Origin: Deltaproteobacteria bacterium GWA2_45_12
GTDB taxonomy: Bacteria > UBA10199
Reading direction: 5' to 3'
Length of the DNA stretch: 64,000 bases
Assembly (NCBI GenBank): GCA_001797365.1
Contig: MGPH01000028.1
Span: 5,687-69,686, forward strand
Shown here piece after piece: positions 16,327 to 60,237 of the stretch. The notes under the pieces were generated by a model. The model searched no databases and was not told where the DNA came from. It worked only from the letters and a program-made list of their open reading frames with translations. Every line of letters begins with the position of its first letter. Within the stretch, counting starts at the first letter, position 1. The position numbers were made by a program, and so were the translations under genes.

Positions 16327-16363
16327 CTATTAATGACAGATCCGGGAACAAATCCCCCTTAAT

Positions 16364-16425: not shown

Positions 16426-16520
16426 TTCCAGGGGGATTTTACCCGAATCCATACCTTTTGCTTGACGAAAGAGAGCCTCATCCGTTATCTGTTTCCCCCC
16501 TTTGTTTTTGATTTTTTTTG

Positions 16521-43470: not shown

Positions 43471-44451
43471 ATGAATTTAGATGAATTGTCGGTAGAAGTT
43501 AGGTCTTTCCATTCGCTTGTTTCCCAAGCTTTTAACGAAATCGAAAAAACCATTGTCGGCCAAAAAGATCTGGTGAGTAAACTTCTTTTGGGTTTATTGA
43601 CCGATGGGCATATTCTGGTTGAGGGGGTGCCGGGACTAGCCAAGACAACCACGGTCAAAACAATGGCCCGGGTTATTTCCGCTTCCTTTCAGCGCATTCA
43701 ATTTACTCCCGATCTATTGCCCGCCGATATTCTAGGAACCCAAATTTACAATCCAAAAACCCAGGAGTTTTATGTAAAGCGCGGCCCCTTGTTTCACAAT
43801 ATTATTCTTGCTGATGAAATCAATCGCGCCCCGGCCAAGGTGCAAAGCGCTCTTTTGGAGGCCATGCAAGAAAAACAGATCACCATTGGGGAGCAAACTT
43901 TTAAGTTGGAAGAGCCCTTTATTGTGCTGGCCACACAAAATCCCATTGAACAGGAAGGCACCTATCCCTTGCCTGAAGCCCAGGTGGACCGCTTCATGCT
44001 GAAGTTGAATGTAAGTTACCCTTCAAAAGCGGAAGAGTTTCAAATCATGGAACGTGTGGCCAATAAAATGAGTGCTGAACCCAGGGCTGTTTTAAGTACG
44101 CAAAAAATTCTGGAGATGCGCGAGGTCATTCGCAAAATTTATATCGATCCCAAGCTTAACGATTACATCATCCGCCTTGTTTTTGCCACGCGCCAACCCG
44201 AAGAGTACGGACTAAAGCTTGGCCCCTACATCCGTTATGGGGCTTCCCCGCGAGCCTCCATTAATCTGCACATGGCGGCCAAGGGTTTGGCTTTCCTTAA
44301 AGGGAGGGCTTACGTCATTCCCGAAGATGTAAAGACAATCGCCCACGATGTGATGCGCCATCGTATTTTACTCACCTTTGAGGCTGAAGCCGAAGGCCTT
44401 ACCAGTGACTCTTTATTGCAACAGATTTTGGACGGCGTTGAGGTGCCTTGA
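43471..44451 (+). CDS. MoxR-family AAA+ ATPase
   Basis: Walker A GVPGLAKT; Walker B ILADEINRA. Confidence 0.9.
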   Translation: MNLDELSVEVRSFHSLVSQAFNEIEKTIVGQKDLVSKLLLGLLTDGHILVEGVPGLAKTTTVKTMARVISASFQRIQFTPDLLPADILGTQIYNPKTQEFYVKRGPLFHNIILADEINRAPAKVQSALLEAMQEKQITIGEQTFKLEEPFIVLATQNPIEQEGTYPLPEAQVDRFMLKLNVSYPSKAEEFQIMERVANKMSAEPRAVLSTQKILEMREVIRKIYIDPKLNDYIIRLVFATRQPEEYGLKLGPYIRYGASPRASINLHMAAKGLAFLKGRAYVIPEDVKTIAHDVMRHRILLTFEAEAEGLTSDSLLQQILDGVEVP

Positions 44452-45329
44452 TGCTCTCACCAGAACTTCTCAAAAAAATCGAGAACATTGTGATTAAAAG
44501 CCGTTATTTGGCCAACGAAATGTTTTCGGGCGAATATAAAACGGCTTTCCGCGGCCGGGGCATGGAATTCGAAGAGGTCAGGGAATACATTCCCGGAGAT
44601 GATGTGCGCTTGATTGACTGGAATGTTTCAGCCCGCATGGATAAGCCCTTTATTAAAGTCCATCGGGAAGAAAGAGAGCAGGCTGTCATGTTGGTAGTTG
44701 ATTTATCACAAAGCCTTTATTTCGGATCAAAAAAAAGATTGAAAAGAGAAGCGGTTGCCGAATTAGCGGCTGTTCTTGCCCGTGCCGCCACCAACAGCAA
44801 TGACAAAGTGGGCCTCATTTTATTTTCCGACCGGGTTGAATATTATCTGCCCCCCCGCAAAGGAAAAAGCCATGTCTGGCAAGTAGTCAAGAGCATTCTG
44901 ACCCATAAACCCATCGGGCAAAAAACAAATCTTGAAGGCGCACTTCATTTTTTAAGCAGGGTGGTCCATCGGCGCTGTGTTTGTTTTGTTATTTCTGATT
45001 TTTTGACGGAAGGCTTTGAAAGCGTGCTTAAAGCGGTTTCGCGCAGATACGATGTTGTTAATTTCATCATGCGTGACCCTTTGGAATTAAATTGGCCCGG
45101 GAAATCATTTGTGAACCTGAAAAGTGCCGAAGAAGAGGGGGTTTCCTTGGGCCAAAACATGGGAGGCAAAAACATAAGGAAATTTAATGAGTATCAAAAA
45201 TTGAGTATCCAAAATCTTACAGCACAATTCCAGGGCATGAATATGGATGCCCTTTTTCTAAAAACAAATGAAGATTACATCGATACCCTGATACGATTTT
45301 TTCGTTTTAGAGATAAAAGGAGAAATTAA
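44448..45329 (+). CDS. DUF58 (vWA-like) protein, MoxR partner
   Basis: 4 nt overlap with MoxR; DUF58 architecture. Confidence 0.8.
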   Translation: MMLSPELLKKIENIVIKSRYLANEMFSGEYKTAFRGRGMEFEEVREYIPGDDVRLIDWNVSARMDKPFIKVHREEREQAVMLVVDLSQSLYFGSKKRLKREAVAELAAVLARAATNSNDKVGLILFSDRVEYYLPPRKGKSHVWQVVKSILTHKPIGQKTNLEGALHFLSRVVHRRCVCFVISDFLTEGFESVLKAVSRRYDVVNFIMRDPLELNWPGKSFVNLKSAEEEGVSLGQNMGGKNIRKFNEYQKLSIQNLTAQFQGMNMDALFLKTNEDYIDTLIRFFRFRDKRRN

Positions 45330-45351
45330 GCATACCTCGTGTACCCGTGTA

Positions 45352-45377
45352 AGGGCGGTTCACGAACCGCCCCTACA
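45352..45377. repeat. Family-1 element gggcggttcacgaaccgcccctaca
   Basis: Same element as inside lipB. Its 3' end abuts the ATG at 45377. Confidence 0.8.
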
Positions 45378-45991
45378 TGGGGCACTCGCCATTTATTATG
45401 GAAGACATCCCCCAATCATCTGAGAGCATGAAAGATATTCTGGATATCGAGAATATTGTCCTGTTTTTATGGCCAAAAGTGCTGCTCTTTGTATTTGGAA
45501 TTCTGGCTCTGCTTCTTTCTATTTTTTTAATCATAAAGATTTTTCAATTTTTAAAAAACCGCAAAAAAAAAATCCTCTCCCTTTCACCCTTGGAACAATC
45601 TTTAAAAAGACTTTCCAAAATTGGCATTAATTTGCTGATTAACTCCCCCCAACCCCCTCTTAAGCTAAGAGGGGGCAAGGGGGAGTTATGTCACTCTGTA
45701 TATTTTGAGCTGTCTGAAATTTTACGAGAATACCTTGATCGGGCTTATTCATTTCCTGCCATGGAAAAATCAACGAGCGAAATCAAAGAATTGTTTATAA
45801 CAAACAAGCCCATCGCGCTATCAAATGAAATCATTGGTGAGCTCGTTTCATTTTTCGAAAAGGCAGACCAAATAAAATTTGCAGGCCAACCCAGTGACAA
45901 TGAAGGTATTAAGGTGGATATGGAAAAAATTAAAAATATAATCATTTGTCTGGATGGCTTATTAAAAAAAGACATTTCCAAACATTCATGA
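45377..45991 (+). CDS. DUF4381-like membrane protein of the Bat operon (true start possibly 45398)
   Basis: N-terminal TM helix. Occupies the position between DUF58 and BatA. Contains an in-frame repeat at 45650-45683. Confidence 0.5.
   Translation: MGHSPFIMEDIPQSSESMKDILDIENIVLFLWPKVLLFVFGILALLLSIFLIIKIFQFLKNRKKKILSLSPLEQSLKRLSKIGINLLINSPQPPLKLRGGKGELCHSVYFELSEILREYLDRAYSFPAMEKSTSEIKELFITNKPIALSNEIIGELVSFFEKADQIKFAGQPSDNEGIKVDMEKIKNIIICLDGLLKKDISKHS
45650..45683. repeat. hairpin element aaccccctcttaagctaagagggggcaaggggg (inside coding frame)
   Basis: Intergenic copy at 54724-54757. Confidence 0.75.
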
Positions 45992-46992
45992 CCACATCTT
46001 TTTTTCAATTTGGCAGTCCCTATTTTTTATTCCTTCTTCTTTTATTGCCCCTTGTGTGGTGGTGGCAGGGTAAAAAAAAAGGTGTTTCCATTCGTTATTC
46101 CTCATTGAAACTTTTTTCTCCTATTACAGGCAAAGATTCGATTCGATTTCATTTTCCACGTTTTTTTTTCATGGTCGGGTTAGCCCTTTTGATTATTGCT
46201 TTGTCGCGACCCCAAGCCGGGTTTAAATCGACGGAAATAACAGCCGAAGGTATTGATATCATGCTCACCCTGGACACTTCCGGAAGCATGAAGGCCCTCG
46301 ATTTTGAAATAGAGGGCCAAAGAACAAACCGGATGGAGGTGATTAAGAAAGTCGTTGATGATTTCATTGCCCACCGAGTCAGCGATCGCATCGGGCTTGT
46401 CATTTTTGGGGATACTGCTTTTACACAATGCCCACTCACCCTTGATTATGACATCCTCCGTTCTTTTCTAAAATTTGTGCGTATAGGAATGGCAGGCGAG
46501 TCAACGGCCATTGGCAATGCCCTGGCCACAAGTGTTAAACGTTTAAAAGACAAACCGACAAAATCAAAAATCATTATTCTTCTTACTGATGGAAGCAGTA
46601 ATGCCGGAGAAGTGGCTCCCATCACAGCGGCCCAGATTGCCAAAGATTATGGAATCAAGGTTTACACAATTGGGGTGGGAAGTAATCTTGAAGTTCCCTT
46701 TCCCCAGGAAACGCCTTTTGGCACACGAATTATCCGTGCGCGCCTGGATATGGATGAGGCCAGCCTTAAAGAAATAGCAAACATTACCGGAGGGCGTTAT
46801 TTTAAGGCGACCGACACGTCCGAACTTCAAAAAATTTATGCCACAATCGACCAGTTGGAAAAGACGGAAGTAAATATGAAACAATTCAAAGAGGTCAACG
46901 AACTCTATTTCTGGTTTGTGGGCGCTGCTTTGTTATTGATGATGAGTGGTTTGCTTTTGGAAAACACCTTATTGATGAGGTTGCCCCTATGA
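45946..46992 (+). CDS. BatA-like vWA-domain membrane protein
   Basis: Two N-terminal TM helices. MIDAS motif LTLDTSGSM. Confidence 0.8.
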   Translation: MSGWLIKKRHFQTFMTTSFFQFGSPYFLFLLLLLPLVWWWQGKKKGVSIRYSSLKLFSPITGKDSIRFHFPRFFFMVGLALLIIALSRPQAGFKSTEITAEGIDIMLTLDTSGSMKALDFEIEGQRTNRMEVIKKVVDDFIAHRVSDRIGLVIFGDTAFTQCPLTLDYDILRSFLKFVRIGMAGESTAIGNALATSVKRLKDKPTKSKIIILLTDGSSNAGEVAPITAAQIAKDYGIKVYTIGVGSNLEVPFPQETPFGTRIIRARLDMDEASLKEIANITGGRYFKATDTSELQKIYATIDQLEKTEVNMKQFKEVNELYFWFVGAALLLMMSGLLLENTLLMRLPL

Positions 46993-48851
46993 TGTGGGCC
47001 CATTTTAAATGGTGGCCGATTTTGTTTTTGGTGCCCGGGCTCGCCCTTTTTTTAAGAAGCACTTACCAGTGGAGAAAAAAACGTCTTCAAAGCTTGATAG
47101 ATGCTCCCTTATGGCCTGAAGTTTTGCCAGGATGGGAACATCATCGTCTTCTTCCCAAGGGAATTCTTTGGGTTCTTGCTTTTACTTTTGTTTTGGTCGC
47201 CCTTTTACGCCCACAATGGGGATATGAGCTTAAAGAGGTACACCGAAAAGGGGTGGATATTTTTGTTTTGGTGGATGTTTCAAATTCAATGTTGGTTGAA
47301 GACATCAAACCAAACAGACTGGAACGTGCCAAGCGCGAACTTAAGGACCTTCTTGATTATCTTCATGGGGATCGCATTGGGCTTATTCCTTTTGCTGGCA
47401 AGGCCTATGTTGCTTGCCCCCTGACCAGTGATCATGAAGTTTTTTCCTTGTTCACAGATGAGCTTGATACAGAGCTTATTCCCACTCAAGGGACTAATAT
47501 GGAAGAAGCCTTCCAAAAAGCTCTGGAGGGTTTTGGGTCCAGCCCTTCGGGTTCAAGAACCATTATTTTGATGACCGATGGCGAATCGACAAGTGGAGCT
47601 TGGAATCAGGTGGTGGAGCGAGTTCAAAAAGAAGAGGTGAAGGTTTTTGTCATGGGTTTTGGCACGGAGGCCGGCGGCCCCATTCCCGAATCGAGTGGGG
47701 GAGGTTTTAAGAAGGATGAAAATGGGGGACTCGTCATTTCCAGACTGGATGAGGATTTTCTTGAAAATTTGGCCAAACAAACAGGGGGAACCTATGTTCA
47801 ATCGACAACCGATGATCGTGACATCGACTTGATTTATAAACAGGGGATAAAAAAAGTAACAGAAGAACAAGAATTCAAATCCGATCAAAAGCGCATTCCC
47901 CTCGAGCGTTTTCAGATTCCCCTGGGTCTTGGGTTTATTTTATTTTTAATCATTTTTCTTTTGCCCGATGTTTCAAGAATGGGAAAAATGTTTTTGGCTG
48001 TTTTTATTCTGGGGTCCTTGTTTTCAACTTCAAGCCATGCCTTTGCCCCCTGGGAAGCCCAAAAGGGAAACCGGTATTATCTGCAAAACAAATACGACAA
48101 GGCGGAAGAAGAATATTTAAAGGCCCTTTCAACAAACCAATCCCCCCGGTTTTATTATAATTTGGGAAACAGCTATTATCGTGAGGGCAAGTTTTTAGAG
48201 GCCGAAGGGGCTTACCTTAAATCGCTTGATTCGCCGGATGCCTCCTTGCGTGAAAAGGCCCTCTATAATCTGGGAAACACGCATTATAGGCAGGAGCATT
48301 TGAAGGAGGCCCTCGATTTTTATGAAAAAGCCCTTAAAAGCAATCCGAAGAACACGCAAGCCAAACTTAACCATGATTTTGTAAAAAAATTGTTGGAAGA
48401 GCAGAAAAATCAGGAAAATAAAGAAGAGGAAAAAAACGACCAGGAACAAAAAGACAATAAGGATTCATCATCAAATAATCAGGAAGAAAAAGAAGACCAA
48501 AAAAAATCAGGTGATTCTTCACAACCGGAAAATAAAAACTCTTCGGAGAACCAGAAAAAAGAAGAAGCTGAGCAGAAAAAGGAGAATGAGACAAAGCAGA
48601 ATGAAGGTGAAGAAAAAAAGGATGAACAAAAGCAAAACATGGATCATAATCCCCCCTCACAAACAGAGGGAGGGCAGGGGGAACAAAATGATGGCGCCAT
48701 GGGCAAATCCGGAAGCGGTTCGCAAGGAGTGAGTCAAAAAGAAGCCCAGCGACGGCTTGATTCGTTGGAAGATACGCCAGGAAAATCATTGCGTGAAATG
48801 ATCCAAAAAGATTTGGGAAGGCATCCTCGCCAACCCGAAAAGGATTGGTAG
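46989..48851 (+). CDS. BatB-like vWA + TPR protein with K/E/Q-rich C-terminal tail
   Basis: VLVDVSNSM MIDAS motif. TPR repeats (YYNLGNSYYREGKF..). Low-complexity tail. Confidence 0.8.
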   Translation: MMWAHFKWWPILFLVPGLALFLRSTYQWRKKRLQSLIDAPLWPEVLPGWEHHRLLPKGILWVLAFTFVLVALLRPQWGYELKEVHRKGVDIFVLVDVSNSMLVEDIKPNRLERAKRELKDLLDYLHGDRIGLIPFAGKAYVACPLTSDHEVFSLFTDELDTELIPTQGTNMEEAFQKALEGFGSSPSGSRTIILMTDGESTSGAWNQVVERVQKEEVKVFVMGFGTEAGGPIPESSGGGFKKDENGGLVISRLDEDFLENLAKQTGGTYVQSTTDDRDIDLIYKQGIKKVTEEQEFKSDQKRIPLERFQIPLGLGFILFLIIFLLPDVSRMGKMFLAVFILGSLFSTSSHAFAPWEAQKGNRYYLQNKYDKAEEEYLKALSTNQSPRFYYNLGNSYYREGKFLEAEGAYLKSLDSPDASLREKALYNLGNTHYRQEHLKEALDFYEKALKSNPKNTQAKLNHDFVKKLLEEQKNQENKEEEKNDQEQKDNKDSSSNNQEEKEDQKKSGDSSQPENKNSSENQKKEEAEQKKENETKQNEGEEKKDEQKQNMDHNPPSQTEGGQGEQNDGAMGKSGSGSQGVSQKEAQRRLDSLEDTPGKSLREMIQKDLGRHPRQPEKDW

Positions 48852-50674
48852 TTTTTGTTATGAAAAAATATTTTTTATTTTTTATTTTTATTTCCCAGAT
48901 ATTTTTTCATGCGCCTGAAAGCCGGGCTGATGTTTCTGTTCAAGCTGCGATCGATCCATCCCGGGCGAGCCTTGAAGATGAGCTCACTCTTACCGTGACG
49001 GTTTCAGGGAGTATGCAGGCCACTGAACCCAGCCTTCCTTCCATGGCCGCTTTCAAGGTTATTCCATCGGGGACTTCCACCAGCTTTCAAATCATCAATG
49101 GGCAAGTGGGTAGCCAGAAAGCCTATAGTTACATCCTTATTCCCACACAGGAAGGTCATTTTAATATGGGAGGAGTTAGTGTCTTTCTTAACGGAAAAGA
49201 ATACACTTCCAATCCTCTTGAAGTGACCATTAGTAAATCCCCCCATGTTCCCTCTGGAAAACCCGCACAACAACCGGATCAAGTGCCTACTGATGAAGAT
49301 GCCCAAACCTATCTTGATCGCACACAAAGAAATATGGCTGATTTGAAGCCCTATTGGATCGAAGCTGGGCTCACCAATAAAAATCCCTTTGTCAATGAGC
49401 AGATCCTTTACACTTTCAAGTTTTATACTTTGGTAAATGTGGGGCAGGCCCAATTAAGTTTGCCCGAGTTCAAGGATTTTTGGTCGGAAGAGGTTGTCCC
49501 CGAAAAAAAATATTACACCACCCTCTCCGGGCAAAAATATGTTGTGAGCGAAAAAATAATCGCTCTTTTACCCTTGCGTTCAGGGGATCTTTCCATTCCT
49601 GAGACAAGTCTAAGGGTAGAGGTGCCTGACCAAAGGGCGGATTCATTTTTTAATGACCCTTTTTTCCGTATGGGCAGGCTCAATATGCGCCCCAAAAATT
49701 TGGTGGCTCCCGCCCTTGATCTTAAAATAAAACCATGGCCTGAACCCCAACCCCCTGATTTTTCAAATCTCGTAGGTGAATTCTCCTTAAAAACCTCCCT
49801 TTCATCCGAAAATATTTCAATGGATGATTCGGCGACCCTCACCCTTGAAGTGACGGGCAAGGGAAATATTAAGGACGCCAAGCTTGTTTTGCCCGAAACT
49901 CTGGATGATTTTAAAATATATGATGACAAACCAGCCCTGGATGTCACTCATGCCGAGGATGGCTTGCAGGGTAAAAAAGTATTCAAGGTAGCCCTTGTTC
50001 CCCAAAGAGAGGGAGTCTTTCAAATTCCTCCTTTTTCATTAAGTGTGCTCGATCCTAAAACAGGAAATTATGTCCCCTTAACCGGTTCTCCCTTCACTCT
50101 TCATGTCAAAGGAGGATCGGCCTCTTCTGTTTTGCCCATCCAGAGACCGGGTTCAGACCGGTCCATCCTTGTTTCCAATGAAGATTTAGCTCCCATTCAT
50201 GATGAATGGGGAAGAGCCAAGGCAAAAGAATTGAGTCGGCAATTTTTGCTGTTTTTATTTTTCATTCCCGCTTTTCTTGTTTTATTTGTTTATGTTTTTC
50301 AGAAAAGAAAAAAGTATCTGGAGGCCCATGAAAATGAATATAGGACAAGAAAAGCACTGGCGGTTTTTAAAAAATCAATGCGCAAGGCGGCTTCCTTAAG
50401 TGATCTTAGGGAAAGACAGGCTTGTCATCTGGAGGCTGTTCGCACTTATGTGCGCAATCGCATGGGGCTTGAACAAATAGGGTTGACACTTCAGGAAATG
50501 ATGCGTTTTCTGGAAACCAAAAGTATCAGGCAGGATAAAAAGGCAGAATTTGAAAAAATACTGCTTGGTTTTGAGAAAACTTGCTATGGCGGGCATGTTC
50601 CCCAAAAGACAGAATTGGATCAATGGGCCCCACGTTTAACCAAACTTATAGAACAGATTGACAAGAAACTATAA
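48845..50674 (+). CDS. BatD-like (oxygen tolerance) protein
   Basis: Signal peptide, large extracytoplasmic region, and a C-terminal TM helix. Confidence 0.7.
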   Translation: MVVFVMKKYFLFFIFISQIFFHAPESRADVSVQAAIDPSRASLEDELTLTVTVSGSMQATEPSLPSMAAFKVIPSGTSTSFQIINGQVGSQKAYSYILIPTQEGHFNMGGVSVFLNGKEYTSNPLEVTISKSPHVPSGKPAQQPDQVPTDEDAQTYLDRTQRNMADLKPYWIEAGLTNKNPFVNEQILYTFKFYTLVNVGQAQLSLPEFKDFWSEEVVPEKKYYTTLSGQKYVVSEKIIALLPLRSGDLSIPETSLRVEVPDQRADSFFNDPFFRMGRLNMRPKNLVAPALDLKIKPWPEPQPPDFSNLVGEFSLKTSLSSENISMDDSATLTLEVTGKGNIKDAKLVLPETLDDFKIYDDKPALDVTHAEDGLQGKKVFKVALVPQREGVFQIPPFSLSVLDPKTGNYVPLTGSPFTLHVKGGSASSVLPIQRPGSDRSILVSNEDLAPIHDEWGRAKAKELSRQFLLFLFFIPAFLVLFVYVFQKRKKYLEAHENEYRTRKALAVFKKSMRKAASLSDLRERQACHLEAVRTYVRNRMGLEQIGLTLQEMMRFLETKSIRQDKKAEFEKILLGFEKTCYGGHVPQKTELDQWAPRLTKLIEQIDKKL

Positions 50675-51439
50675 ATGAAACCCTATTATTTGATATTTTT
50701 ATTGATTCTTTTTTCAGGCTCCCTTTTTGCCGATACGCCCGATCCTCTGTTTATCCAAGCCAACAAGGCCTATATCTCCAAAAATTATGAGGAGGCTTTC
50801 CAGGCTTATGAAACTTTGATCAAGAAAGGGGAGGCGGGGGCCTTTGTCTACGGGAATGCAGCCAATTCGGCCTATTATCTTGACCGCATGGGTCTGGCCC
50901 TGCTTTATTCCAAAAAAGCCCTCATGCGTGCTCCCAGAGATGCCGATTTAAGGGCCAATCATTATTTCATTCTGCAGCATACACATGCGACAAACAATAC
51001 GTCTTTGAATATAGAATCCGTGATCGAAAAAACTTTTTTCTGGAGCAGTTACTTGACTGGTCATGAACTTTGGCTGGTCACTTTAAGTGCTTATTTTCTT
51101 CTGTGTTTGTTTGTTATTCTATTTTTGGTTTTTAGAAAGAACATCCTTAAAAAAGGATTTTTTTTCTCATTTATCTTGTTTCTCTTGTGCCTTTCTGGAT
51201 TATTGACGAATTTGCTTTTTTTATATAACCCCCAGGATCACTACATTGTAGAAAAACAAGTTCCTGTTTATCCCTCTTTTGTATCTTCTGAACCATCCGA
51301 TGTTTTAGCTGACGGGACCAAGGTAAGGGTGAAGGTTAAACATGGTATGGGAGAAGGGGACCAGTGGCTTTTTATTCATTATGGAAATGGTAAAAAGGGA
51401 TGGCTTAGATCCGTGCAGGCACTTCCGATAAATTTATGA
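50675..51439 (+). CDS. BatE-like TPR / SH3b membrane protein
   Basis: TPR N-terminus, TM segments, and a C-terminal SH3-like GWLRSVQ region. Confidence 0.6.
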   Translation: MKPYYLIFLLILFSGSLFADTPDPLFIQANKAYISKNYEEAFQAYETLIKKGEAGAFVYGNAANSAYYLDRMGLALLYSKKALMRAPRDADLRANHYFILQHTHATNNTSLNIESVIEKTFFWSSYLTGHELWLVTLSAYFLLCLFVILFLVFRKNILKKGFFFSFILFLLCLSGLLTNLLFLYNPQDHYIVEKQVPVYPSFVSSEPSDVLADGTKVRVKVKHGMGEGDQWLFIHYGNGKKGWLRSVQALPINL

Positions 51440-52269
51440 GCAAACCCACCCAGTCCTATTTTAAATCACACGATCATCATCGCTTATACTATGAAACCTG
51501 GGGCCACGATAAACCCAGGGGGACGCTTATCTTTGTTCATGGCCTTAACGAACATTCAGGGCGATATGCCCATGTGGCCGATTATTTTCAGAAAAGAGAT
51601 TACAATGTCTATCTCTTTGATCACCGCGGACACGGAAAATCCGATGGTTTGCGCAGTTTTGCGGATGATTTTTCCCATTACCTCAAAGATGTGGATGAAT
51701 TTGTTCATTTGGTCTTTAAAACGGAACGGGATCACAAGGTTTTTCTTGTGGGTCACAGTATGGGAGGGCAGATCGTTTTAAATTACCTGGCCAAATATCG
51801 TTCACGTCTGTCCGGTTTTGTCACGTTTTCCCCCAATATACTTACTGTTCTCAAAATTCCTTTTCTTAAAAAGTGGATCGGATTGAAACTGGCTTGTTTC
51901 ATGCCCAAATTTTCGGTCGTCAACGAAATTGATTGCCGCTTCATTTCTCACGATCCCAAAGTGGTTGAAGCTTATGAAAATGACCCGCTTGTTTCAAAAA
52001 AAATAACCCTGGGCCTGGCCAAAGAGCTTTATGAAAACCAGAAGGATATCTTGAAGCTGGCCTATCGCATTCACATTCCGGCCCTCATGATGCATGGAAG
52101 CGGGGATCAAATCTGCCATGTGGATGGCAGCAAGAAATTTTTTAGAAGACTTGCTTCGGAAGATAAAACGCTCAAGATTTTTGAGGGCTTTTATCATGAA
52201 TTGTTTAATGAGCCCGAGAAAAATCAGGTGTTAAAATTCATGGAAGATTGGCTTGCCAAAAGAACTTAG
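51436..52269 (+). CDS. alpha/beta hydrolase (lysophospholipase / monoacylglycerol lipase-like)
   Basis: HGLNEHSGRY ... GHSMGG nucleophile elbow. Confidence 0.8.
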   Translation: MSKPTQSYFKSHDHHRLYYETWGHDKPRGTLIFVHGLNEHSGRYAHVADYFQKRDYNVYLFDHRGHGKSDGLRSFADDFSHYLKDVDEFVHLVFKTERDHKVFLVGHSMGGQIVLNYLAKYRSRLSGFVTFSPNILTVLKIPFLKKWIGLKLACFMPKFSVVNEIDCRFISHDPKVVEAYENDPLVSKKITLGLAKELYENQKDILKLAYRIHIPALMMHGSGDQICHVDGSKKFFRRLASEDKTLKIFEGFYHELFNEPEKNQVLKFMEDWLAKRT

Positions 52270-52478
52270 TCCTTTGACAAATTGATATAGATCCAATCTT
52301 CAAAAGCGTCAAAAAAATATCAGAACGGCAGTTTTTTCATGTCCATTCTTTGGTCTTAAATAGACATCCCTCTGTAAGTTCTTCATTTCTCCCACATTTT
52401 ATTTTTCATTTTATGGCAAATATTTTGCTTCACTGGGAAGCTGTGTCATGGGGGGGGAATCCTTTATAAGGGGGCATC

Positions 52479-54707
52479 ATGAAAAATTTTTTTTCTTTTT
52501 TCCAAAATAAATTTTGGGTTATTCCACTCATCATGATCATGGCCACGGCCAATTGCAGTAGCAGCAGTGATGGCAGTAGCAGCGGCTCCAGCGATGGTTT
52601 ATCAGTTGAAGCCAGCGTCTCGCAACCTTCGACCAATGTTTCTGCGCTCAAATTACCTTCGGGAGTGAGGGGCCTCATGATGCAGGCGGCCGTGACAGAA
52701 GCCTCTGCTGAAGGAATTGTAGTCCATGCCGAAGACACGGCGGGAACCGAGATAGGAACTCCTTGTACAACGGATTCCACTGGAACATGCGATGTCACAG
52801 GGCTCACCAGCGCCCAACTTGAGGCGGGCATCGTTTTAGTGGCGGAAGACGCCGAGGGCGTCCCCATCCATGCCTACCAGGAATATGAAGCCGCGGATGT
52901 CACCGCCGCTGAAGCCAGCGGTGACGCCCTAGCCGCCCCTGTCAATACCGAAACCGACGCGGCTTACGGGGTGCTTGAATATTTTTGCAACGATGATTTG
53001 GCCAATTGCACGGGCTCGGAGGATAGCTTGACGGTGAACCGCGATTGCATTGTGCAGGCCACATCCGCCCTCATGGGGGATGATGACCCTTCGACGGATG
53101 ATCTGGGTGGTTATGCCGAAGCTCTGTATGAAGCGCATGCCAATGCCATCGCCGGTGCTACGGCCGGTGCCAACCCGGCCGATCTCATGAGGGAGGCCTT
53201 GGGTGGGGATCCGACGGGATTCACAGGCACAGCCGGCACAACCGTGGGGGATGATGACATTCCCGTGGAGGATTCCATTGAGAACTTTGTGATCATGATG
53301 GATACAATCCGGGATAGTTTTTGCGCCGCAGCCGCAGGTGCGGAAACGACTTATGAAACGACCCACACAGAAGCCGGCACTGAGTTTGACCCTGCCGCCA
53401 TGGTGGGCATGTTCCGATATTTCACACCGGATGAAATCGGGGAATATGAAGTGGAGGATTTCCGTGGTTTTGCCGGGGCCCTTCCCGCGTTGGATGGGGG
53501 CTTTAGGATCTTTGATCACCCCGAAGCCAGGAGGACCGCAGTCAACATGTTTAGAAACGGCGGCTTTGCGGATCCCACCAAAGCCGGGGCAGCCCTTGGC
53601 TTTATGGGCGCCACCTTTCCACCGCCGGCAATCGCAGGGGATTGGGAAAACATCCCCTGGGGCGGCACCTTTGATTACGAGGCCAGCGCCCGGGCAGCCG
53701 CTCTGGGTTGGCTAGAGATGGGCGATGATGCAGCCACGTTTGACCCTTCCACCATCCGGGATAAGTTTAACACCACATTCTCGGATGCCGGCCATAGGCA
53801 GGCCATTCTTGTGGGCGGTTCTTCGGCCATCGGAGACTTTATCGGCGGCTTCGTCAACGACCCGAATAATTTCGTGCCGGCCAACCACTTGGGGGAAATC
53901 AAAGCCCCTCCGGGAGGAGCTTGCGAGGACGATGATGATTGCCTCCCCTGTGATAATTGCTCCAATGATGTGTGCACCTCCCTTTCAACCACCATGGGTT
54001 CCTCCTGCACCGATGATGATAATTGCGACAGTGTCACCACCTGCGTCGGGGGTTTTATTAGCTCCTTTGGTGGGCATTGCATGTGCACCGCGGGCGTCCC
54101 GACAGGCGCTCCCGTGGGTGGAGGCGCAGGGTTCTTCGGTGTTACGGATGGCTTTGGACCACCCGCTGACGGCGGAGAGGGTGCTCCTTGCGGCACGGAT
54201 TTGCCGGCCTGCAATGGCGGGCGGCAGTGCAGTGGGCAAGACCATGGCGTTTGCATCGGGGGCACCTTCAAAAAAGGACCCTTTGCCCCGTGCACAGCGG
54301 ATGCCGAATGTTTCTCCGATGATTGTAGCGACTCAGGCATTTGTACAGCCGATGGGGACATCGCTGGGACAAAAGCCGTGGGCCAAGGTTGCTCCGGGCC
54401 AGCGGAATGCTCCACTTTCTTTTGCCAAGCTGGCCTCTGTGCCATTCCTGATCATATCAATGATGATCATGCCCTAGGCACCAATGACAAAAAGGCTGAT
54501 GGCGAGAGCTGCATCACACCCTTTGAATGCGCTTCCTTCGTCTGCGCAGGTAGCCCTTTAACCTGTCAACCGGGTGGCGGCGGTCAGGGCCAACCTCCGG
54601 TGCCTCCTTCAAACTTGCCCACGGGAGCCTTCTGCATCGATGATGATGAATGCTTGTCGGGCAATTGTGGGTTTAACCCGAATACACATCAGAATAGTTG
54701 CGAATAA
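52479..54707 (+). CDS. large secreted/lipoprotein acidic Gly/Ala/Thr-rich protein with C-terminal Cys-rich repeats; compositionally GC-rich
   Basis: Signal peptide plus CSSSS linker. About 16 repeats of C-x3-5-[DE]C-x-S-x2-3-C-x1-3-G-x-C. GC is about 58-65% against about 43% background. Confidence 0.6.
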   Translation: MKNFFSFFQNKFWVIPLIMIMATANCSSSSDGSSSGSSDGLSVEASVSQPSTNVSALKLPSGVRGLMMQAAVTEASAEGIVVHAEDTAGTEIGTPCTTDSTGTCDVTGLTSAQLEAGIVLVAEDAEGVPIHAYQEYEAADVTAAEASGDALAAPVNTETDAAYGVLEYFCNDDLANCTGSEDSLTVNRDCIVQATSALMGDDDPSTDDLGGYAEALYEAHANAIAGATAGANPADLMREALGGDPTGFTGTAGTTVGDDDIPVEDSIENFVIMMDTIRDSFCAAAAGAETTYETTHTEAGTEFDPAAMVGMFRYFTPDEIGEYEVEDFRGFAGALPALDGGFRIFDHPEARRTAVNMFRNGGFADPTKAGAALGFMGATFPPPAIAGDWENIPWGGTFDYEASARAAALGWLEMGDDAATFDPSTIRDKFNTTFSDAGHRQAILVGGSSAIGDFIGGFVNDPNNFVPANHLGEIKAPPGGACEDDDDCLPCDNCSNDVCTSLSTTMGSSCTDDDNCDSVTTCVGGFISSFGGHCMCTAGVPTGAPVGGGAGFFGVTDGFGPPADGGEGAPCGTDLPACNGGRQCSGQDHGVCIGGTFKKGPFAPCTADAECFSDDCSDSGICTADGDIAGTKAVGQGCSGPAECSTFFCQAGLCAIPDHINDDHALGTNDKKADGESCITPFECASFVCAGSPLTCQPGGGGQGQPPVPPSNLPTGAFCIDDDECLSGNCGFNPNTHQNSCE

Positions 54708-54723
54708 ATAGAATAAGTCCCCC

Positions 54724-54757
54724 TAACCCCCTCTTACAGCTAAGAGGGGGCGACGGG
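54724..54757. repeat. hairpin element taaccccctcttacagctaagagggggcgacggg (terminator-like, no T-run)
   Basis: Copy of the 45650-45683 element. Located 3' of the 52479 gene. Confidence 0.7.
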
Positions 54758-54879
54758 TTCATCTCTAACCCGCATTTCTCACCGTAACGATTTTTCTGAA
54801 AAACTGGTTTGAAAATCAGCGGTGATGACTCATATTCCCTCTCCAAACCACCGTAATATTAACCCTGAAAAAAACTCAG

Positions 54880-56118
54880 TCATTTCACCAATTCCAGTTC
54901 ACGGGCACTGGCCAAGGCGGCCAGGCGGCACAAAAAGCGGGACACGTTGACGACATGTTCCTTTTCCTGACAATCCAAAAAATACGATTCATGGGGTTCG
55001 TCGAGTTTGTGGAGGCAGAGGCATGAAAAACTCATACCGGGAGCGTTCAAGCTTTCAAATTCATTTTTGGATTCATGGACCCTGAAAAAACCACCCACAT
55101 CATGGGCCCCCACAGCATAAATGACGGGCTCCACCGGGAATCCACTGTATTTGTCAATGGTGGGGATCCCTTCCTGTAATAAATAATTGGAAGCCGTCAT
55201 CCCCCCTTTGGCAGACATGAGTTTGTTTTTCTTTTTTCGATTAAACAAAAGAATGTCTTCTCCTGAAAAAACGGCAGCCAATCCCATGCCATAAGTTCCC
55301 GTGTTGTTTTTAATGTAAACATAGGGAACTTCTTTTATTTGATATTGATTATATTTGTCACCGATCTTGCTGATAAGAGCATCTACCTGAGTGGCCAGCT
55401 TGTTTATCGAGTTGGCATCATTAAAATCAAGTGGGGCACTTACATCAAAGAAGGCATTGATCATCCATGGATCCAAGTTAAATTCCTTGCAAAAGGAGTC
55501 TGTGATTTCTTTTAGCAAAGAAAAGTGTCTGCTTTTTCTTCTTTGATGCCACCCTAAGGCGGGGTGGGGAATGATGGATTGGTCTAGCCCTTTGAGGATT
55601 TCCGGGATTCCTGTGGAGAAATCGTTGTTCGAAAGAATGAGATCGGGAACAAAATTTCCCGCCCGTACTAGATTCTTCTCACGAGACAATTTAAAGAGGG
55701 TCAGTTTTCCTTCATCCACTGAAACTTCAAGGGTGTTGTTTCCAATGTCGTTGCCTATGATGGCAAATTCAATTTCATGGATATCGCTAGAGAGAAGTTT
55801 TTTTAAGTGGAGAAGGTTTAAAAGATAAAACTTGTTTCGTGTGTGATCCTCGGCCAGTAAAACTATTTTTTTTACGTGGGGAAAATAATCTTCCAGATAA
55901 CACTTGAAGGCAAGGGCCGTCTGCCTGGAAAAGGCCGTGCATAAATTGTTGAACCCGGCCGGGAAGAGATTGGAGTCAACCACCCCTATTTTAAAACCGG
56001 AATGACGAATATCGCATGAAAGATAAATATTGGGCCTTAAGTTTTTCCATTGAGCTTCAAACCAGTTGGCCACATCCTTTTGTTTTATCCCCAGTATGTT
56101 TTGAATGATATCCAGCAT
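54880..56118 (-). CDS. hypothetical protein, possible carboxylate-amine ligase (GshA-like?)
   Basis: 412 aa with no motif I can name with confidence. Co-oriented with and 2 nt downstream of glnE. Confidence 0.4.
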   Translation of the reverse strand: MLDIIQNILGIKQKDVANWFEAQWKNLRPNIYLSCDIRHSGFKIGVVDSNLFPAGFNNLCTAFSRQTALAFKCYLEDYFPHVKKIVLLAEDHTRNKFYLLNLLHLKKLLSSDIHEIEFAIIGNDIGNNTLEVSVDEGKLTLFKLSREKNLVRAGNFVPDLILSNNDFSTGIPEILKGLDQSIIPHPALGWHQRRKSRHFSLLKEITDSFCKEFNLDPWMINAFFDVSAPLDFNDANSINKLATQVDALISKIGDKYNQYQIKEVPYVYIKNNTGTYGMGLAAVFSGEDILLFNRKKKNKLMSAKGGMTASNYLLQEGIPTIDKYSGFPVEPVIYAVGAHDVGGFFRVHESKNEFESLNAPGMSFSCLCLHKLDEPHESYFLDCQEKEHVVNVSRFLCRLAALASARELELVK

Positions 56119-56119
56119 T

Positions 56120-58675
56120 TTACGTCAAGATTTTGTTGTAGGTAGATCTAACCTGATCCCTGTAGAGTTGCAAGGCCTGCCAGCAGTCATGGGCGTTTTT
56201 AAATCCCATGTTAAGGGCAATCTCTTCCATGTCCGGATCGTTGATTTTTAAACGATGAACAGACAATTCTTTTTTTAGAAAGACCTTGGCTTCAAAACTT
56301 CTGTAAAAAGTGTAGGCCTCTTTAAGGAGAAGGGCCTCGGTCTGGTTTTTGAGCAGGTTGAGTTCAAGGAGCCTGTCTAATCCTTCAAAAGTATTCTGGG
56401 TTCTTAGCGCGGCATATTCATGCCCGCAGATGAGTTGAAGGTATTGAAGCAGGAATTCAATATCCATGATGCCACCGCATCCCAATTTGAAGTCGATTTC
56501 ATTTTTGGATTCATGGGCCAGTTCTTTTTCAACACGCATGCGAAGACGGTTCATTTCATCTTTGATGCTTTCGGGGTATTTTTGATTGAACAAAAGAACC
56601 TTGATATTTTCCATGACAAAACGGTTGAAAGCGGCAGGGCCTATCATGGGATGGGCTCGCAGAAGGGCTTGTCGCTCCCAGATTTGGGAGGCGTTTTTCT
56701 GGTATTCCATGAACTGATGAAACGAAGTGACAAGCAGGCCCTGTTTTCCTGAAGGCCGCAATTCGGTGTCAACTTTATAGGCAAAGCCTTGGCGGGTCGT
56801 GACTGAAAGGACAAAAATAAATTTTTGGGCAAGCCGTGCAAAAAACTCCTGGTTGGAGATTATTTTTGGCCCTGTGGTTTCCCCTTCTTCGGAATAGATA
56901 AAGATAAGATCGAGGTCGGATCCATACCCCAATTCAAAGCCCCCAAATTTCCCCATGCCCATGGCGACTAATTCGGAAGGTTTGGGCGAGACATTGTTCT
57001 GTAAATATTGGGGAACCCCATAAATGGGTTTTAGCAGCTCAAATGAAAGTTCAAGACCTTTTTGGGCGATGGCTTCTGCCAGAAGCGAAAGCTTGAATGC
57101 CATTGTTTTTCTGGAAATACCCTTGAATCTTTCCAGTTTTATTATTTCAGCGATATGGTTTTTCTTGAATATTCTTAAAGCATCGAGATTTTCTTCCAAA
57201 TTCTTGGGAGCAAAAGAGAGCTCATTCATGGAATCGCGATAATGGTACAAGGGAATATCGATGGGGCGTTTTGTAAAGCGGGCTGGGACGGTTGTTGGGG
57301 CGTCATCTGCAAAGAGGCGGTTATAAATTTCATGATTTCTTTGAGTGGCTTTTTGGAGGTCTTGTTGAAAGTGAAAACTGGCTTCTTCCAACGAGTCATG
57401 CATATAGCCCATGCTTCGTGCGGCCTCACCAAGGCTTTGAGGTGAAAGATGGAGATCATGGGTTTGTGCCTCGTCCACCATTTGCAGGCGATGCTCCAGT
57501 TTTCTTAAGAAGAGATACGATTCCCTTAAATGTTTGGCATCCTCATTTCCGAGGAGTTTACTTTCTACAAGGGAAGCCAGAGCCTTTAAACTGTTACGAT
57601 GTCTTAATGATGGGATTCTTCCTCCATAAATAAGCAAAAAGGCCTGGATGAAAAACTCGATTTCACGAATGCCCCCCAGGCCTAGTTTCACATTATAAAT
57701 CTTTCCGGTTGATTTGGTGGCGGTGTTTATTTTTTGCTTGATGGATTGCACTTCTTGAATGCTGACCCAGTCCAAATGTTTGCGGTAAACGAAAGCGGTC
57801 ATGGTTTCCAAAAAATCTTCCCCCAGTTTTTGGTCCCCCAGACAAGGGGCTGCTTTAATATAAGCCTGTCTTTCCCAATTGGCTCCCACTGTCTCATAAT
57901 AGGTTTCCATGGAAAGTTTTGTCTGAATAAGGGCTCCGTCCCGTCCTTGGGGCCGCAAGTCCCAATCAACCCGATAAAAAAATCCGTTTTCGGTTCGGGT
58001 TTGAAGGGTATGTGTCAAATTTTGAAAATGACGACTAAAGAATTCCTTGGTGGAATATTTCCCCCCATAATCGAATTCGTTTTCGATGAAAGCAATAAGG
58101 TCAACGTCAGAACTATAATTGATTTCCATTCCTCCTAACTTCCCCATGGCCAGGGCATGGTAAGCACATTCATGGCCGTACTCATTGGTGGGCTTTCCCC
58201 ATTTTGCAACCGATTCTTCATAGGTTAGATGATTTATGGTTTGAAGAAGTAGATAACAAAGTGCTGATAATTCAGATAAAATCTCTTCCTGCGAAGTTCC
58301 ATTTAAATCTTTGAGAGTGAGGCGTAAGTATTCACGATATTTGTAGGTGCATAAAGCTTCCAAGCTGGAAGGAGATTTCTGGAGGAGGTTTTTGATTTCT
58401 TTTTTGATAACGGAAGCATCTTTAGGTTTACTTAAATAAGGGGAAGAAAAAAAAGTGTCAGCTTCGGCAGGGTTTTTTATGAGCCAAGCACTTAAAAAAT
58501 GGGAAGTCCCAAATATTTGTAACAGTTTGATATTATTTGATTTATTAGAATTGAAAGATTTTTTAACGTCACTTTTATAGCATTCTTGGAATTTCTCCCA
58601 ATCAAGAAAGGCCTCATGGGGGCGGGGGGATTTCTTAAAAACACTGTCGATATCATGATCTAAAACTTTTTTCAT
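56120..58675 (-). CDS. glnE: bifunctional glutamine synthetase adenylyltransferase / adenylyl-removing enzyme GlnE
   Basis: Two nucleotidyltransferase cores (GKLGGMEINYSSDVDLIAF; GKFGGFELGYGSDLDLIF). Start ATG 58673-58675; the ORF tool extension covers a repeat. Confidence 0.9.
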   Translation of the reverse strand: MKKVLDHDIDSVFKKSPRPHEAFLDWEKFQECYKSDVKKSFNSNKSNNIKLLQIFGTSHFLSAWLIKNPAEADTFFSSPYLSKPKDASVIKKEIKNLLQKSPSSLEALCTYKYREYLRLTLKDLNGTSQEEILSELSALCYLLLQTINHLTYEESVAKWGKPTNEYGHECAYHALAMGKLGGMEINYSSDVDLIAFIENEFDYGGKYSTKEFFSRHFQNLTHTLQTRTENGFFYRVDWDLRPQGRDGALIQTKLSMETYYETVGANWERQAYIKAAPCLGDQKLGEDFLETMTAFVYRKHLDWVSIQEVQSIKQKINTATKSTGKIYNVKLGLGGIREIEFFIQAFLLIYGGRIPSLRHRNSLKALASLVESKLLGNEDAKHLRESYLFLRKLEHRLQMVDEAQTHDLHLSPQSLGEAARSMGYMHDSLEEASFHFQQDLQKATQRNHEIYNRLFADDAPTTVPARFTKRPIDIPLYHYRDSMNELSFAPKNLEENLDALRIFKKNHIAEIIKLERFKGISRKTMAFKLSLLAEAIAQKGLELSFELLKPIYGVPQYLQNNVSPKPSELVAMGMGKFGGFELGYGSDLDLIFIYSEEGETTGPKIISNQEFFARLAQKFIFVLSVTTRQGFAYKVDTELRPSGKQGLLVTSFHQFMEYQKNASQIWERQALLRAHPMIGPAAFNRFVMENIKVLLFNQKYPESIKDEMNRLRMRVEKELAHESKNEIDFKLGCGGIMDIEFLLQYLQLICGHEYAALRTQNTFEGLDRLLELNLLKNQTEALLLKEAYTFYRSFEAKVFLKKELSVHRLKINDPDMEEIALNMGFKNAHDCWQALQLYRDQVRSTYNKILT

Positions 58676-58747
58676 TTTAATCAACAAGAACAAAAACTTG
58701 ATCCGTTTTTTATTTTTGCCCCTGGGGGCAGAAATAAAAAACGGATC

Positions 58748-58792
58748 AACCCTGAGCGATCCGCTGCGGAGAGTCGAAGGGTCGCTCAGGAT
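58748..58792. repeat. Family-2 repeat aaccctgagcgatccgctgcggagagtcgaagggtcgctcaggat
   Basis: Lies upstream of the glnE start. Confidence 0.8.
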
Positions 58793-58956
58793 TAAAAAAT
58801 ATTTTGTGAATATGTCACAATAAGTCAAAAAAGAGTCTATCACAACTATCTGACATAGTTCGAGAATTTTATACTTTAATGCACTGCGATAGAAGAGAAT
58901 AGAATTGTTGATAATTTGTCAGTGACAATAAATCGTCAAAAATTGTACACTTAGCC

Positions 58957-60237
58957 TTGTTGTGGGGGGAGGGGGAGAGGTTAGTGAATAAGGGGGAATT
59001 CCATTCTATTGTTGAAGGGGTTGGTGTTTTTGGTGAGCCCGAGTTTGCGGCTTACTTTCAACGACTCTTTGAAAACGAACCCATTTCATTTGATTCTTTT
59101 ACTAGTCTTCCTGATTTTTTTTCATTTATTACAAACCAGCATCCCCGGTTGATTATCATCAATGGGTCTCATTTTTCCCAGTTAGAAAATTTTGAAAACT
59201 TTTCGCAATTAAAAGCTTATCTAGATCAGATGAAGATTGTAAGTCTTGTGATCACAAAAACAGTGAAAGAAATTAATCAATGGCGTAGTTTGAATTGGCC
59301 AAATATCCGTTTTTATAACGGTTCGATTATTTCCCAAAATTTGAAACAAAAAGTAAAAAATATGATGCAGGAAAGACTATTTTTGGAAAAGCCTTCTTTG
59401 GCCATCATCAGCAAACAGGCCTATTTGAGCACCCAAGTGGAACTTATTTTAAAGAACTATGGTTTCAGGATTCATTCAACCATGCCCCCTTCCTCCAAAG
59501 AGAAAATAATGGCCATGACCAGTGAGGGATTGGATGGCATTTTATGGGATGTTCAGGCCTGGAACGAGAATAGCCAGGGGATTGTTTCACAAATGAATGA
59601 ACAAATGCCCCATCAAAAGATTCCCATTATTTTTGTTTCGGAGGCTCCCGTTTTTAACAAGGACAAACTGAAAAATGATGCGGTTTGCATTCGTCATGAA
59701 AAAGAACTGATAAGTCGTATTTATCAAGATTTAACCGTTTCAGAAACCCCGGAAGTCGTTAGGTTGCGCGATGAACAAACAGGTCTCTACTTGCCTGCCA
59801 TTTTCTTTGGACTGGCAGAGCGTGAAATGAGGATGGCGGCCAAGCATCGTGAAGAAATGGCGATCATTAAATTGACCATTGATAATTTAGGAGCCTTGGC
59901 CGATGAGTACGGGCCCATTTTTACGGCAAGTCTTGTCAATAACTTGGGGTTGTTTATCAAGAACAGGGTTCGTCATACCGACTTGGTGGCCAAAGGAGAA
60001 ACAGGGCATGCCCTCCTTATGCTTAATCGTGTGACACCTGATCTGGCCAATTTGGTTGCCGAAAAATTGCGTAATCAATTTAAAAGCATTGCCTCCTTTG
60101 ATGGGAAGGTCAGTTTTTGTCCGGAACTTCGTTACGAAGTGATTTGTTTCCCACGTGATTTTGCGTCCATTGAAGAAGCCAAACAACTTTTCCAAACAGC
60201 TTTTCCCGGTATTTTATGCCAGCCAGCCCTGGCTTGA
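58957..60237 (+). CDS. degenerate GGDEF-domain protein with two N-terminal receiver-like domains (start uncertain, GTG 58984 possible)
   Basis: GGDEF fold (TGLYLPAIFF.. IDNLGAL..) with the active-site GG[DE]EF replaced by GETGH. Confidence 0.6.
   Translation: MLWGEGERLVNKGEFHSIVEGVGVFGEPEFAAYFQRLFENEPISFDSFTSLPDFFSFITNQHPRLIIINGSHFSQLENFENFSQLKAYLDQMKIVSLVITKTVKEINQWRSLNWPNIRFYNGSIISQNLKQKVKNMMQERLFLEKPSLAIISKQAYLSTQVELILKNYGFRIHSTMPPSSKEKIMAMTSEGLDGILWDVQAWNENSQGIVSQMNEQMPHQKIPIIFVSEAPVFNKDKLKNDAVCIRHEKELISRIYQDLTVSETPEVVRLRDEQTGLYLPAIFFGLAEREMRMAAKHREEMAIIKLTIDNLGALADEYGPIFTASLVNNLGLFIKNRVRHTDLVAKGETGHALLMLNRVTPDLANLVAEKLRNQFKSIASFDGKVSFCPELRYEVICFPRDFASIEEAKQLFQTAFPGILCQPALA

Follow-up and report, generated by a model that had tools for sequence, protein, structure and literature searches.

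We describe here a gene for a 742-amino-acid (aa) protein at positions 52479..54707 (forward strand) of a 64-kb stretch of DNA, hereafter the window, from the groundwater metagenome-assembled genome (MAG) Deltaproteobacteria bacterium GWA2_45_12, and argue that it is probably an accessory gene for an adhesin-like surface lipoprotein, inserted between two convergent genes, coming from a relative richer in guanine plus cytosine (GC) and by now partly ameliorated. The open reading frame (ORF), which an initial annotation had picked out from the DNA alone as a Cys-rich secreted protein of atypical base composition, is present as a complete coding sequence, and the N-terminus, the CSSSSDGSSSGSSDG linker, the acidic Ala/Gly/Thr-rich middle and all five Cys modules quoted in that annotation are in the sequence. 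It had left the choice between two origins: either the gene was acquired horizontally, or it is native and its amino-acid and codon bias is extreme. Both appear to contribute, in that the GC excess divides into 76% that is due to amino-acid composition and 24% that is due to synonymous choice, to which the evidence of the locus is added.

Measured against the 64-kb window and its 45 non-overlapping ORFs of at least 150 aa, the gene has the highest GC of all 45 (0.567, compared with 0.40–0.43 in the flanking genes and 0.447 for all coding DNA of the window), and in 1-kb steps GC stands at 0.58 and 0.54 at 53–55 kb against 0.37–0.50 elsewhere. The claim that 60-nt windows within the gene are 55–67% GC holds for 57% of such windows, but the full range is 23–70% (mean 56.8%). 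Third codon positions are shifted as had been proposed (GC3 0.581 against about 0.45, the other 44 ORFs lying at 0.36–0.542), but the largest deviation by codon position is at the second (GC2 0.539 against about 0.35; other ORFs 0.26–0.43). If the protein is recoded according to the synonymous preferences of the window, a GC of 0.539 is predicted, and it is from this value that the above division follows; amino-acid content is thus the main cause of the anomaly. The product contains more Ala, Gly, Thr, Cys, Asp and Pro than the other proteins of the window and less Lys (1.5 vs 8.1%), Leu, Ile, Tyr and Arg. The same is seen in the seven homologue loci (host GC3 0.51–0.79), where GC2 lies 0.09 to 0.24 above that of the flanking genes in every case, and high GC2 is a family trait. 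The three long alternate-frame ORFs reported earlier (52929–53519 and 53675–54445 on the reverse strand, 53725–54477 on the forward strand) exist, and we considered and rejected them as genes, since their frame and length vary among the homologues; open alternate frames of 92–340 aa occur in every homologue and in none of the native genes of similar size, and they look like by-products of composition.

The smaller, synonymous part of the signal is what points beyond the protein itself. After correction for amino acids, GC at synonymous third positions is 0.569 where 0.479 would be expected; with z = 5.1 this is the largest shift of the 45 ORFs, the other 44 falling between –3.2 and +2.3, so that the match to the surrounding codon usage by which the initial annotation would have abandoned its case was not found. 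The shift is concentrated in codons 107–636, with TGC, GGC, ATC, GTG/GTC and AGG/CGG over-used. A codon table from a relative of about 50% GC (locus L001) fits the gene slightly better than that of the host (synonymous log-likelihood –1.110 vs –1.120), whereas five of five native control genes fit the host table best. In tetranucleotide signature, moreover, the gene ranks last in likeness to the host among 115 equal-sized pieces (r 0.795 vs 0.872 ± 0.025, z = –3.1). High expression was rejected as a cause of the GC3 shift, given that the DnaK, TypA and GltB genes of the window show none. Among the homologues, GC3 lies within ±0.06 of the flanks at six of the seven loci and hence tracks the host. 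The remaining locus (L006 144–2312, the gene for protein P0005) is the sole other one with a large positive offset (+0.138); only two flanking genes were usable there, one of them for an AAA_14/DUF4143 ATPase, and this gene could be a second recently moved copy.

The locus itself provides the other line of evidence. To the left of the gene lies an alpha/beta hydrolase (Hydrolase_4; 51436..52269, forward strand), the last gene of a Bat-operon block, and to the right, convergent with the gene, glutamate–cysteine ligase GshA (54880..56118, reverse strand), followed by GlnE. The best GshA homologue found anywhere is only 58% identical, which indicates that the lineage is sparsely sampled. One of the contigs carrying the closest GshA proteins (L007, 56% identical, its hydrolase being 55% identical) is collinear with the window over 11 genes on both sides of the site at 30–57% identity, sharing the order DUF58, small ORF, BatA, BatB(/C), BatD, TPR membrane protein, hydrolase, GshA, GlnE and GGDEF-like protein. 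In L007 only 40 bp lie between the convergent hydrolase and gshA genes and the gene is absent, whereas in the window they are separated by a 209-bp spacer, the gene and a 172-bp spacer; the gene is the sole addition to the 11-gene block. Translated searches (tblastn) detected no family member in the sequence retrieved around gshA (up to 21 kb) from L007, L008, L012 and L013, and in the three further GshA relatives, which either keep GlnE–GshA or have other genes downstream, the gene is likewise missing. Conversely, the neighbours at all seven homologue loci differ from those in the window, and none of the homologues lies beside a hydrolase, Bat genes or gshA. Considering the absence from the syntenic locus, the variable position within the family and the synonymous shift together, we suggest that this is an inserted accessory gene, gained in the lineage of the window at a harmless site between two convergent genes; the source would be a GC-richer carrier of the family within the same broad lineage, with partial amelioration afterwards.

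Of the usual marks of horizontal transfer, then, atypical synonymous usage and absence from the orthologous locus were both found and mobile-element signatures were not, and we regard the insertion signal as suggestive. Several points weigh against it. The flanks carry no direct repeats, integrase, tRNA or other mobile-element trace (flanking repeats, tried as possible scars of such an element, are at chance level only, the best being 22 nt at 73%). Host-like codon preferences persist in the gene (GCC, GAT, GAA, AAA, TTT, CAT, TAT) and the shift is modest; the log-likelihood advantage of the foreign codon table is tiny; and the tetranucleotide deviation, which is confounded by amino-acid content, barely passes the native minimum of 0.800. 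In addition, the composition background is 64 kb rather than the whole genome, and the polarity of the event is read from one distant syntenic relative (about 50% protein identity), so that loss in the L007 lineage instead of gain is possible.

These same points feed the most serious competing account, namely that the gene is native and vertically inherited, that its GC stems from amino-acid content with gene-specific codon selection or context, and that it was lost or moved in the L007 lineage. Since amino-acid content alone explains 76% of the excess, host-typical preferences are largely kept and no mobile-element signature flanks the gene, this account has a fair amount to recommend it; moreover, the identity to the best homologues (48–49%) is about that of orthologous enzymes in the nearest relative (48–57%), and family members share a sample series with the closest GshA relatives. 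It does not readily accommodate, however, a synonymous shift that is the most extreme of the window and that six of the seven homologues lack relative to their hosts, nor a gene that is the only break in an 11-gene synteny and whose homologues never adjoin the hydrolase, the Bat genes or gshA. We therefore consider vertical inheritance a possible but not a likely explanation and prefer insertion. The composition anomaly is mostly cautionary: a 12-point jump in GC that resembles a foreign island is three-quarters due to the makeup of the protein, and the smaller signal of a probable insertion becomes visible only through synonymous sites and synteny.

The protein belongs to a rare, unnamed and uncharacterised family of very acidic predicted lipoproteins. 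A word-indexed search of 5.8 billion proteins returned only five homologues (36–49% identity, all from metagenome assemblies), which align end to end with the protein and share about 36 invariant Cys, and a profile search of 1.84 billion cluster representatives gave 87 matches, of which some 30 are full-length while the remainder share the Cys modules only; a search with the resulting 29-sequence alignment had the same six proteins among the matches listed. The carriers are uncultured MAGs labelled ‘Deltaproteobacteria’ and unlabelled metagenome contigs, and the few named members, one of them from another Deltaproteobacteria MAG, are entered as ‘hypothetical protein’. The initial annotation would also have abandoned its case had orthologues of the same composition existed in all relatives; homologues of that composition do exist, but at other positions than this locus and not in all relatives. 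Pfam and NCBIfam searches with the whole protein, its two halves and two homologues gave nothing above threshold, and the full-length protein had no Pfam family at E ≤ 0.01; a scan of the GTDB species representatives with the family alignment and then with the GshA of the window confirmed no locus, and literature searches on Dickkopf with bacterial lipoprotein and on the MAG name returned nothing relevant. Taken singly, the lipoprotein signal, the CnaB/extender sandwich and the Cys modules resembling Dickkopf, EB and knottin domains belong to known kinds, and it is the architecture that defines the family. The charge is extreme, 109 Asp and Glu against 25 Lys and Arg giving a net –84, and each domain has a pI of about 4; most members of the family lie between –28 and –87, with three near-neutral exceptions (–1 to –11).

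From the N-terminus, the protein begins with a predicted signal peptide (residues 1–25, then Cys26; 52479..52556, this and the following domain coordinates being on the forward strand) in which Lys2 and Lys11 are followed by a hydrophobic core. The N-terminus reads MKNFFSFFQNKFWVIPLIMIMATAN and then the Cys, Cys26 being the presumed lipidation site within the lipobox A-T-A-N-C. Of the signal/lipoprotein-like start proposed earlier, the signal and the invariant Cys are present; the residue at –1 is atypical. An equivalent signal peptide and Cys26 itself are present in all 29 family members, and Gly occupies –1 in 22 of them, Asn in this protein only. With a strict PROSITE-style lipobox ([LVI][ASTVI][GAS]-C, the Cys being the first mature residue) 16 of the 29 members pass and this protein, with its Asn, does not, which counts against lipidation; Asn at –1 is tolerated in some spirochaete lipoproteins. 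The family context, to judge by the alignment, looks lipoprotein-like. There follows a flexible tether rich in Ser, Gly and Asp (SSSSDGSSSGSSDG; 52557..52598), for which the predicted local distance difference test score (pLDDT) is below 50; an equivalent Gly/Ser-rich tether follows the Cys in all members.

The tether leads to a CnaB/transthyretin-like beta-sandwich (residues 77–135; 52707..52883), modelled with a pLDDT of about 90 and a Cys96/Cys104 pair in a full-length AlphaFold2 model built from six sequences (predicted template modelling score 0.56). Its best PDB matches by Foldseek are the CnaB2 domain 8bdw (E 7.6e-3, template modelling score TMt 0.55) and transthyretins; the 29-sequence family profile finds 6xi3 (E 4.5e-7), an extender repeat taken from a large biofilm adhesin, and 10ps (E 0.0097), the SdrD B domain. 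Residues 77–135 thus qualify as a CnaB or adhesin extender domain by both prealbumin-like fold and sequence-profile similarity. In fold, in profile and in its stalk-like position next to the membrane this sandwich resembles the CnaB/extender domains of Gram-positive and large RTX or Lap biofilm adhesins (8bdw, 10ps, 6xi3). It differs from these, however, in having a Cys pair and in being a single copy where they form long tandem arrays. The predicted anchor is also different, a lipid, whereas those adhesins are attached through LPXTG or through a retention module for type I secretion. CnaB domains typically contain an intramolecular isopeptide bond (Lys–Asp/Asn, with a catalytic Glu or Asp); the sandwich of our protein has very little Lys.

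Beyond the sandwich lies an acidic, all-helical domain of about 330 aa (residues 138–472; 52890..53894; 56 Asp and Glu against 14 Lys and Arg), modelled with a pLDDT of 72–91 through residue 390 and of 50–82 for residues 391–470. Outside the family it has no detectable relative: Pfam and NCBIfam returned nothing, and the PDB yielded neither a fold match at E ≤ 0.001 nor one by sequence. Conservation within it reveals no catalytic-type residues and no conserved constellation of His, Ser, Lys or Glu, the only well-conserved positions being D160, a few Gly and Pro, Cys170, Cys177 and Cys282. A hint of a metallopeptidase (Reprolysin_5 in one distant member, 2.3e-4; Peptidase_M64 in one relative that shares only the modules, 9.5e-4) was rejected, since no HExxH and no conserved catalytic residues are present and each match occurs in a single member.

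The C-terminal third is where the Cys residues concentrate. It had been described as built of about 16 Cys modules; it consists instead of one 10-Cys head (residues 479–536; 53913..54086), the ten Cys of which are invariant in 29 sequences, and five 4-Cys modules on Gly/Pro-rich linkers (residues 568–592, 602–622, 635–654, 675–696 and 716–741; 54180..54701), 30 Cys in all. Stacking the modules of six close homologues gives the consensus G-x2-C-x5-C-x4-C-x4-9-C, and the four Cys are invariant across the 27 modules of this alignment (A4). Leaving the lipobox Cys aside, the protein has 36 Cys, an even count that, like the fixed spacing, favours disulfides; the location would then be oxidizing and extracytoplasmic. 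A single module is modelled by AlphaFold2 with a pLDDT of 88, and all 20 PDB neighbours of that model are small disulfide-rich peptides of knottin or colipase type, with E values that are non-significant for so short a query. The best is nemertide alpha-1 (template modelling score 0.82, root-mean-square deviation 0.9 Å over 30 residues), the others including conotoxins, spider toxins, the 4-Cys peptide LEAP2, squash (trypsin) inhibitors and colipase. The sole matches in BFVD, to Cys-rich pithovirus proteins (template modelling score about 0.07), derive from the low-confidence tail of the full-length model and were set aside.

The earlier statement that the modules resemble without matching disulfide repeats of eukaryotic type is borne out, the protein being similar to DUF7107, Dickkopf, Draxin and EGF below threshold only. 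Its C-terminal 273 aa have DUF7107 as their best Pfam family (E 0.028, 15.2 bits against a cut-off of 24.6), the family profile weakly matches the Draxin Cys-rich domain (E 0.004) and DKK1/2 (E 0.5–0.8), and profile-to-sequence searches with the modules gave weak matches to Dickkopf, Draxin, EGF and a Brugia protein. Both the DUF7107 match and that to the Draxin domain relate to the 10-Cys head. Among the module-only relatives, EB is found in five (best 1.1e-10), Dickkopf_N in two (best 6e-8) and DUF7107 as well; within the family, E ≤ 0.001 for EB or Dickkopf_N is attained by no more than a few distant members. What the protein shares with Dickkopf_N (PF04706), EB (PF01683), DUF7107 (PF23416) and Draxin, all disulfide modules of the colipase-fold type, is the extracellular repetition of short Gly-x2-Cys…Cys-x-Ser-x2-Cys…Cys units. 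It differs in that its units have four Cys, compared with 8–10 in EB and Dickkopf domains, and, unlike the Dickkopf_N, EB and DUF7107 proteins, it is bacterial, predicted to be lipid-anchored and below every Pfam threshold. Similarly, the predicted module fold superposes on inhibitor cystine knot (ICK) peptides, which have six Cys and three disulfides, the third threading a ring; the module, with four Cys, is not such a knottin, as two disulfides cannot form a knot, and its Cys2–Cys3 spacing of four residues is also unlike that of ICK peptides. A two-disulfide ‘disulfide-directed beta-hairpin’ has been proposed as the precursor of the ICK. The same module recurs in extracellular proteins of myxobacterial type (myxosortase-dependent M36 peptidases, PKD or VWA proteins, CglB-like and MtsC-like proteins), one such relative matching NF033757 (CglB, 2.7e-8), another NF047638 (MtsC, 1.4e-16) and one also carrying a MopE-type metal-binding motif. 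Myxococcus CglB, a gliding-motility lipoprotein adhesin, and the MYXO-CTERM protein MtsC are, like our protein, Cys-rich surface or lipoproteins, but it has neither the VWA domain nor a sorting tag and matches neither NF033757 nor NF047638.

Taken together, these features suggest a non-enzymatic binder of the cell envelope or surface that may act in the manner of an adhesin. The signal peptide would be cleaved at the invariant Cys26, the lipidation of which would anchor the protein in a membrane; outward from the lipid would come the Ser/Gly tether, the sandwich of adhesin-stalk type, the family-specific helical domain and the disulfide-locked modules, with the 10-Cys head and the five 4-Cys units on their Gly/Pro linkers at the distal end. 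Such modules could give a rigid, protease-resistant binding end. Three points tell against this: the Cys-rich tail is poorly modelled in the full-length structure (pLDDT < 50), the fold matches of the module are statistically non-significant, and the adhesin function is argued from domain analogy alone.

A variant of this proposal keeps the gene and its origin and replaces adhesion with the binding of cations, metals or minerals, the charge and possibly free thiols serving to sequester Ca, Fe, Mn or Cu or to contact aquifer minerals. Here the net charge of –84, with its pI of about 4 throughout, would find a ready use, as would the MopE-type motif of the module-only relative and the genomic setting of some homologues: two lie beside alternative-complex-III or cytochrome clusters and two beside thioredoxin-fold genes. 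The acidity is not universal, however, a few members being nearly neutral; Pfam scans show no known metal-binding motif in the protein; and the even Cys count, the fixed 4-Cys spacing and the confident knottin-like models point to disulfides rather than metal ligands, so that we judge metal or mineral binding unlikely. The settings themselves merit a brief description. Divergent members at L001 5496–12355 and L010 509–12313 lie 1–3 kb from clusters of alternative-complex-III type with NrfD, ActD and a multihaem cytochrome, and in L010 and L011 thioredoxin-fold (AhpC-TSA/Redoxin) genes are close to the family member; these neighbours may be a residual ancestral context, or the protein may be tied in function to envelope redox conditions.

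Given that, in structure, the module lies closest to animal toxins, squash trypsin inhibitors, LEAP2 and colipase, and that weak Pfam matches to conotoxin and PhTx occur among the module-only relatives, one might instead see the modules as toxins, or as protease or ion-channel inhibitors, directed against prey, grazers or competitors, with the lipoprotein as a scaffold for their display or release. We think this quite improbable, since the third disulfide of the 6-Cys ICK knot is absent, all module matches are non-significant, the module recurs widely as an accessory repeat of large surface proteins with structural or enzymatic roles, and neither processing sites nor a genomic context of toxin type were seen.

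Returning to the adhesin-like binder, a bolder and rather doubtful extension would be that the family represents a new class of surface protein, in which arrays of two-disulfide, knottin-like units (a prokaryotic counterpart, possibly a relative, of the Dickkopf, colipase, EB and ICK modules) are carried on a new helical fold of about 330 aa, encoded by a mobile accessory gene and perhaps switched in this genome by a tract of eight G residues (below). What we have in hand is a family of lipoproteins that is rare and unnamed, comes from groundwater bacteria of which little is known, and combines an adhesin-type stalk, an unmatched helical domain and tiny disulfide modules otherwise best known from animal toxins and signalling proteins. 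Should the modules turn out to be stable and to bind, they would be attractive as bacterial miniprotein scaffolds and would bear on the origin of eukaryotic cystine-rich modules.

That the gene could be an artefact, either of a chimeric metagenome assembly or of a chance ORF in a GC-rich non-coding stretch, may be all but dismissed: the source is a metagenome scaffold and composition changes abruptly at both flanks, but NCBI (two MAG records), JGI and ENA have the identical sequence, flanked by the same genes, on contigs of 88.9, 82.6 and 66.6 kb, which argues against an assembly artefact, and homologues with invariant Cys columns occur in other samples. The protein is already public, as OGP09434.1 and HBF13365.1 (exact matches, deposited as ‘hypothetical protein’ of GWA2_45_12), and exact look-ups of the DnaK, TypA, GltB, RecG, GshA and GlnE of the window likewise returned proteins of this MAG. 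The ENA and JGI gene calls start at Met19 (724 aa; 52533) and so lose most of the signal peptide, whereas NCBI uses the 742-aa start at 52479; the position of the Shine–Dalgarno sequence, the proper signal peptide and the family alignment all support the longer form as the probable one.

The gene is a real one, equipped with a ribosome-binding site of its own and followed by a putative hairpin. It is preceded by an AT-rich intergenic region (52270..52478, forward strand, 209 bp, GC 0.37) and by a Shine–Dalgarno-like AAGGGGG (52468–52474, forward strand) 4 nt 5′ of the ATG; the genes of the homologues are likewise preceded by G-rich Shine–Dalgarno sequences (GGGGG), which are typical of the family. 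No sigma-70 consensus promoter was found on the forward strand upstream of the gene. Downstream, an inverted repeat (54720..54757, forward strand; 17-nt arms, 82% complementary, core CCCCCTCTTA-cagc-TAAGAGGGGG) starts 13 nt past the stop codon, within the 172-bp spacer shared with the convergent gshA, and may form a terminator hairpin; a consensus terminator scan called no canonical terminator after the gene because no T-run follows the repeat. The upstream region also contains a run of eight G residues (52450–52457, 22–29 nt 5′ of the start codon), the sole run of eight or more G or C in the 64-kb window, which could be a slipped-strand phase-variation element for a surface lipoprotein. The homologue at L006 has a G8 upstream as well, placed at the Shine–Dalgarno position.

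Some further observations concern the surroundings of the gene. In the syntenic genes themselves GC3 is about 0.40–0.51 in the window (43471–58843) and 0.59–0.73 in L007 (6110–18971), a sign of how far the base composition of the two lineages has diverged. The BatB-like ORF of the window (46989–48851, 620 aa) joins VWA and TPR regions in one protein, whereas L007 has two genes in the corresponding place (14706–16588; 337 and 289 aa), which reflects either a BatB–BatC fusion in the window or a split in L007. Near the closest GshA homologues, very large ORFs run off the contig ends (L012 11109–17266, L013 2158–9366 and L007 1–3062); their products, of 3835, 3585 and at least 1718 aa, are mostly without Pfam matches, one of them having 2H-SAK. 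Within the window, the ORFs at 20039–21409 (456 aa) and 58957–60237 (426 aa) have no Pfam match at E ≤ 1e-5, the product of the latter being 34% identical to the GGDEF-carrying protein of L007, and a tRNA gene just upstream of recG (16521–16595) is the sole Rfam match.

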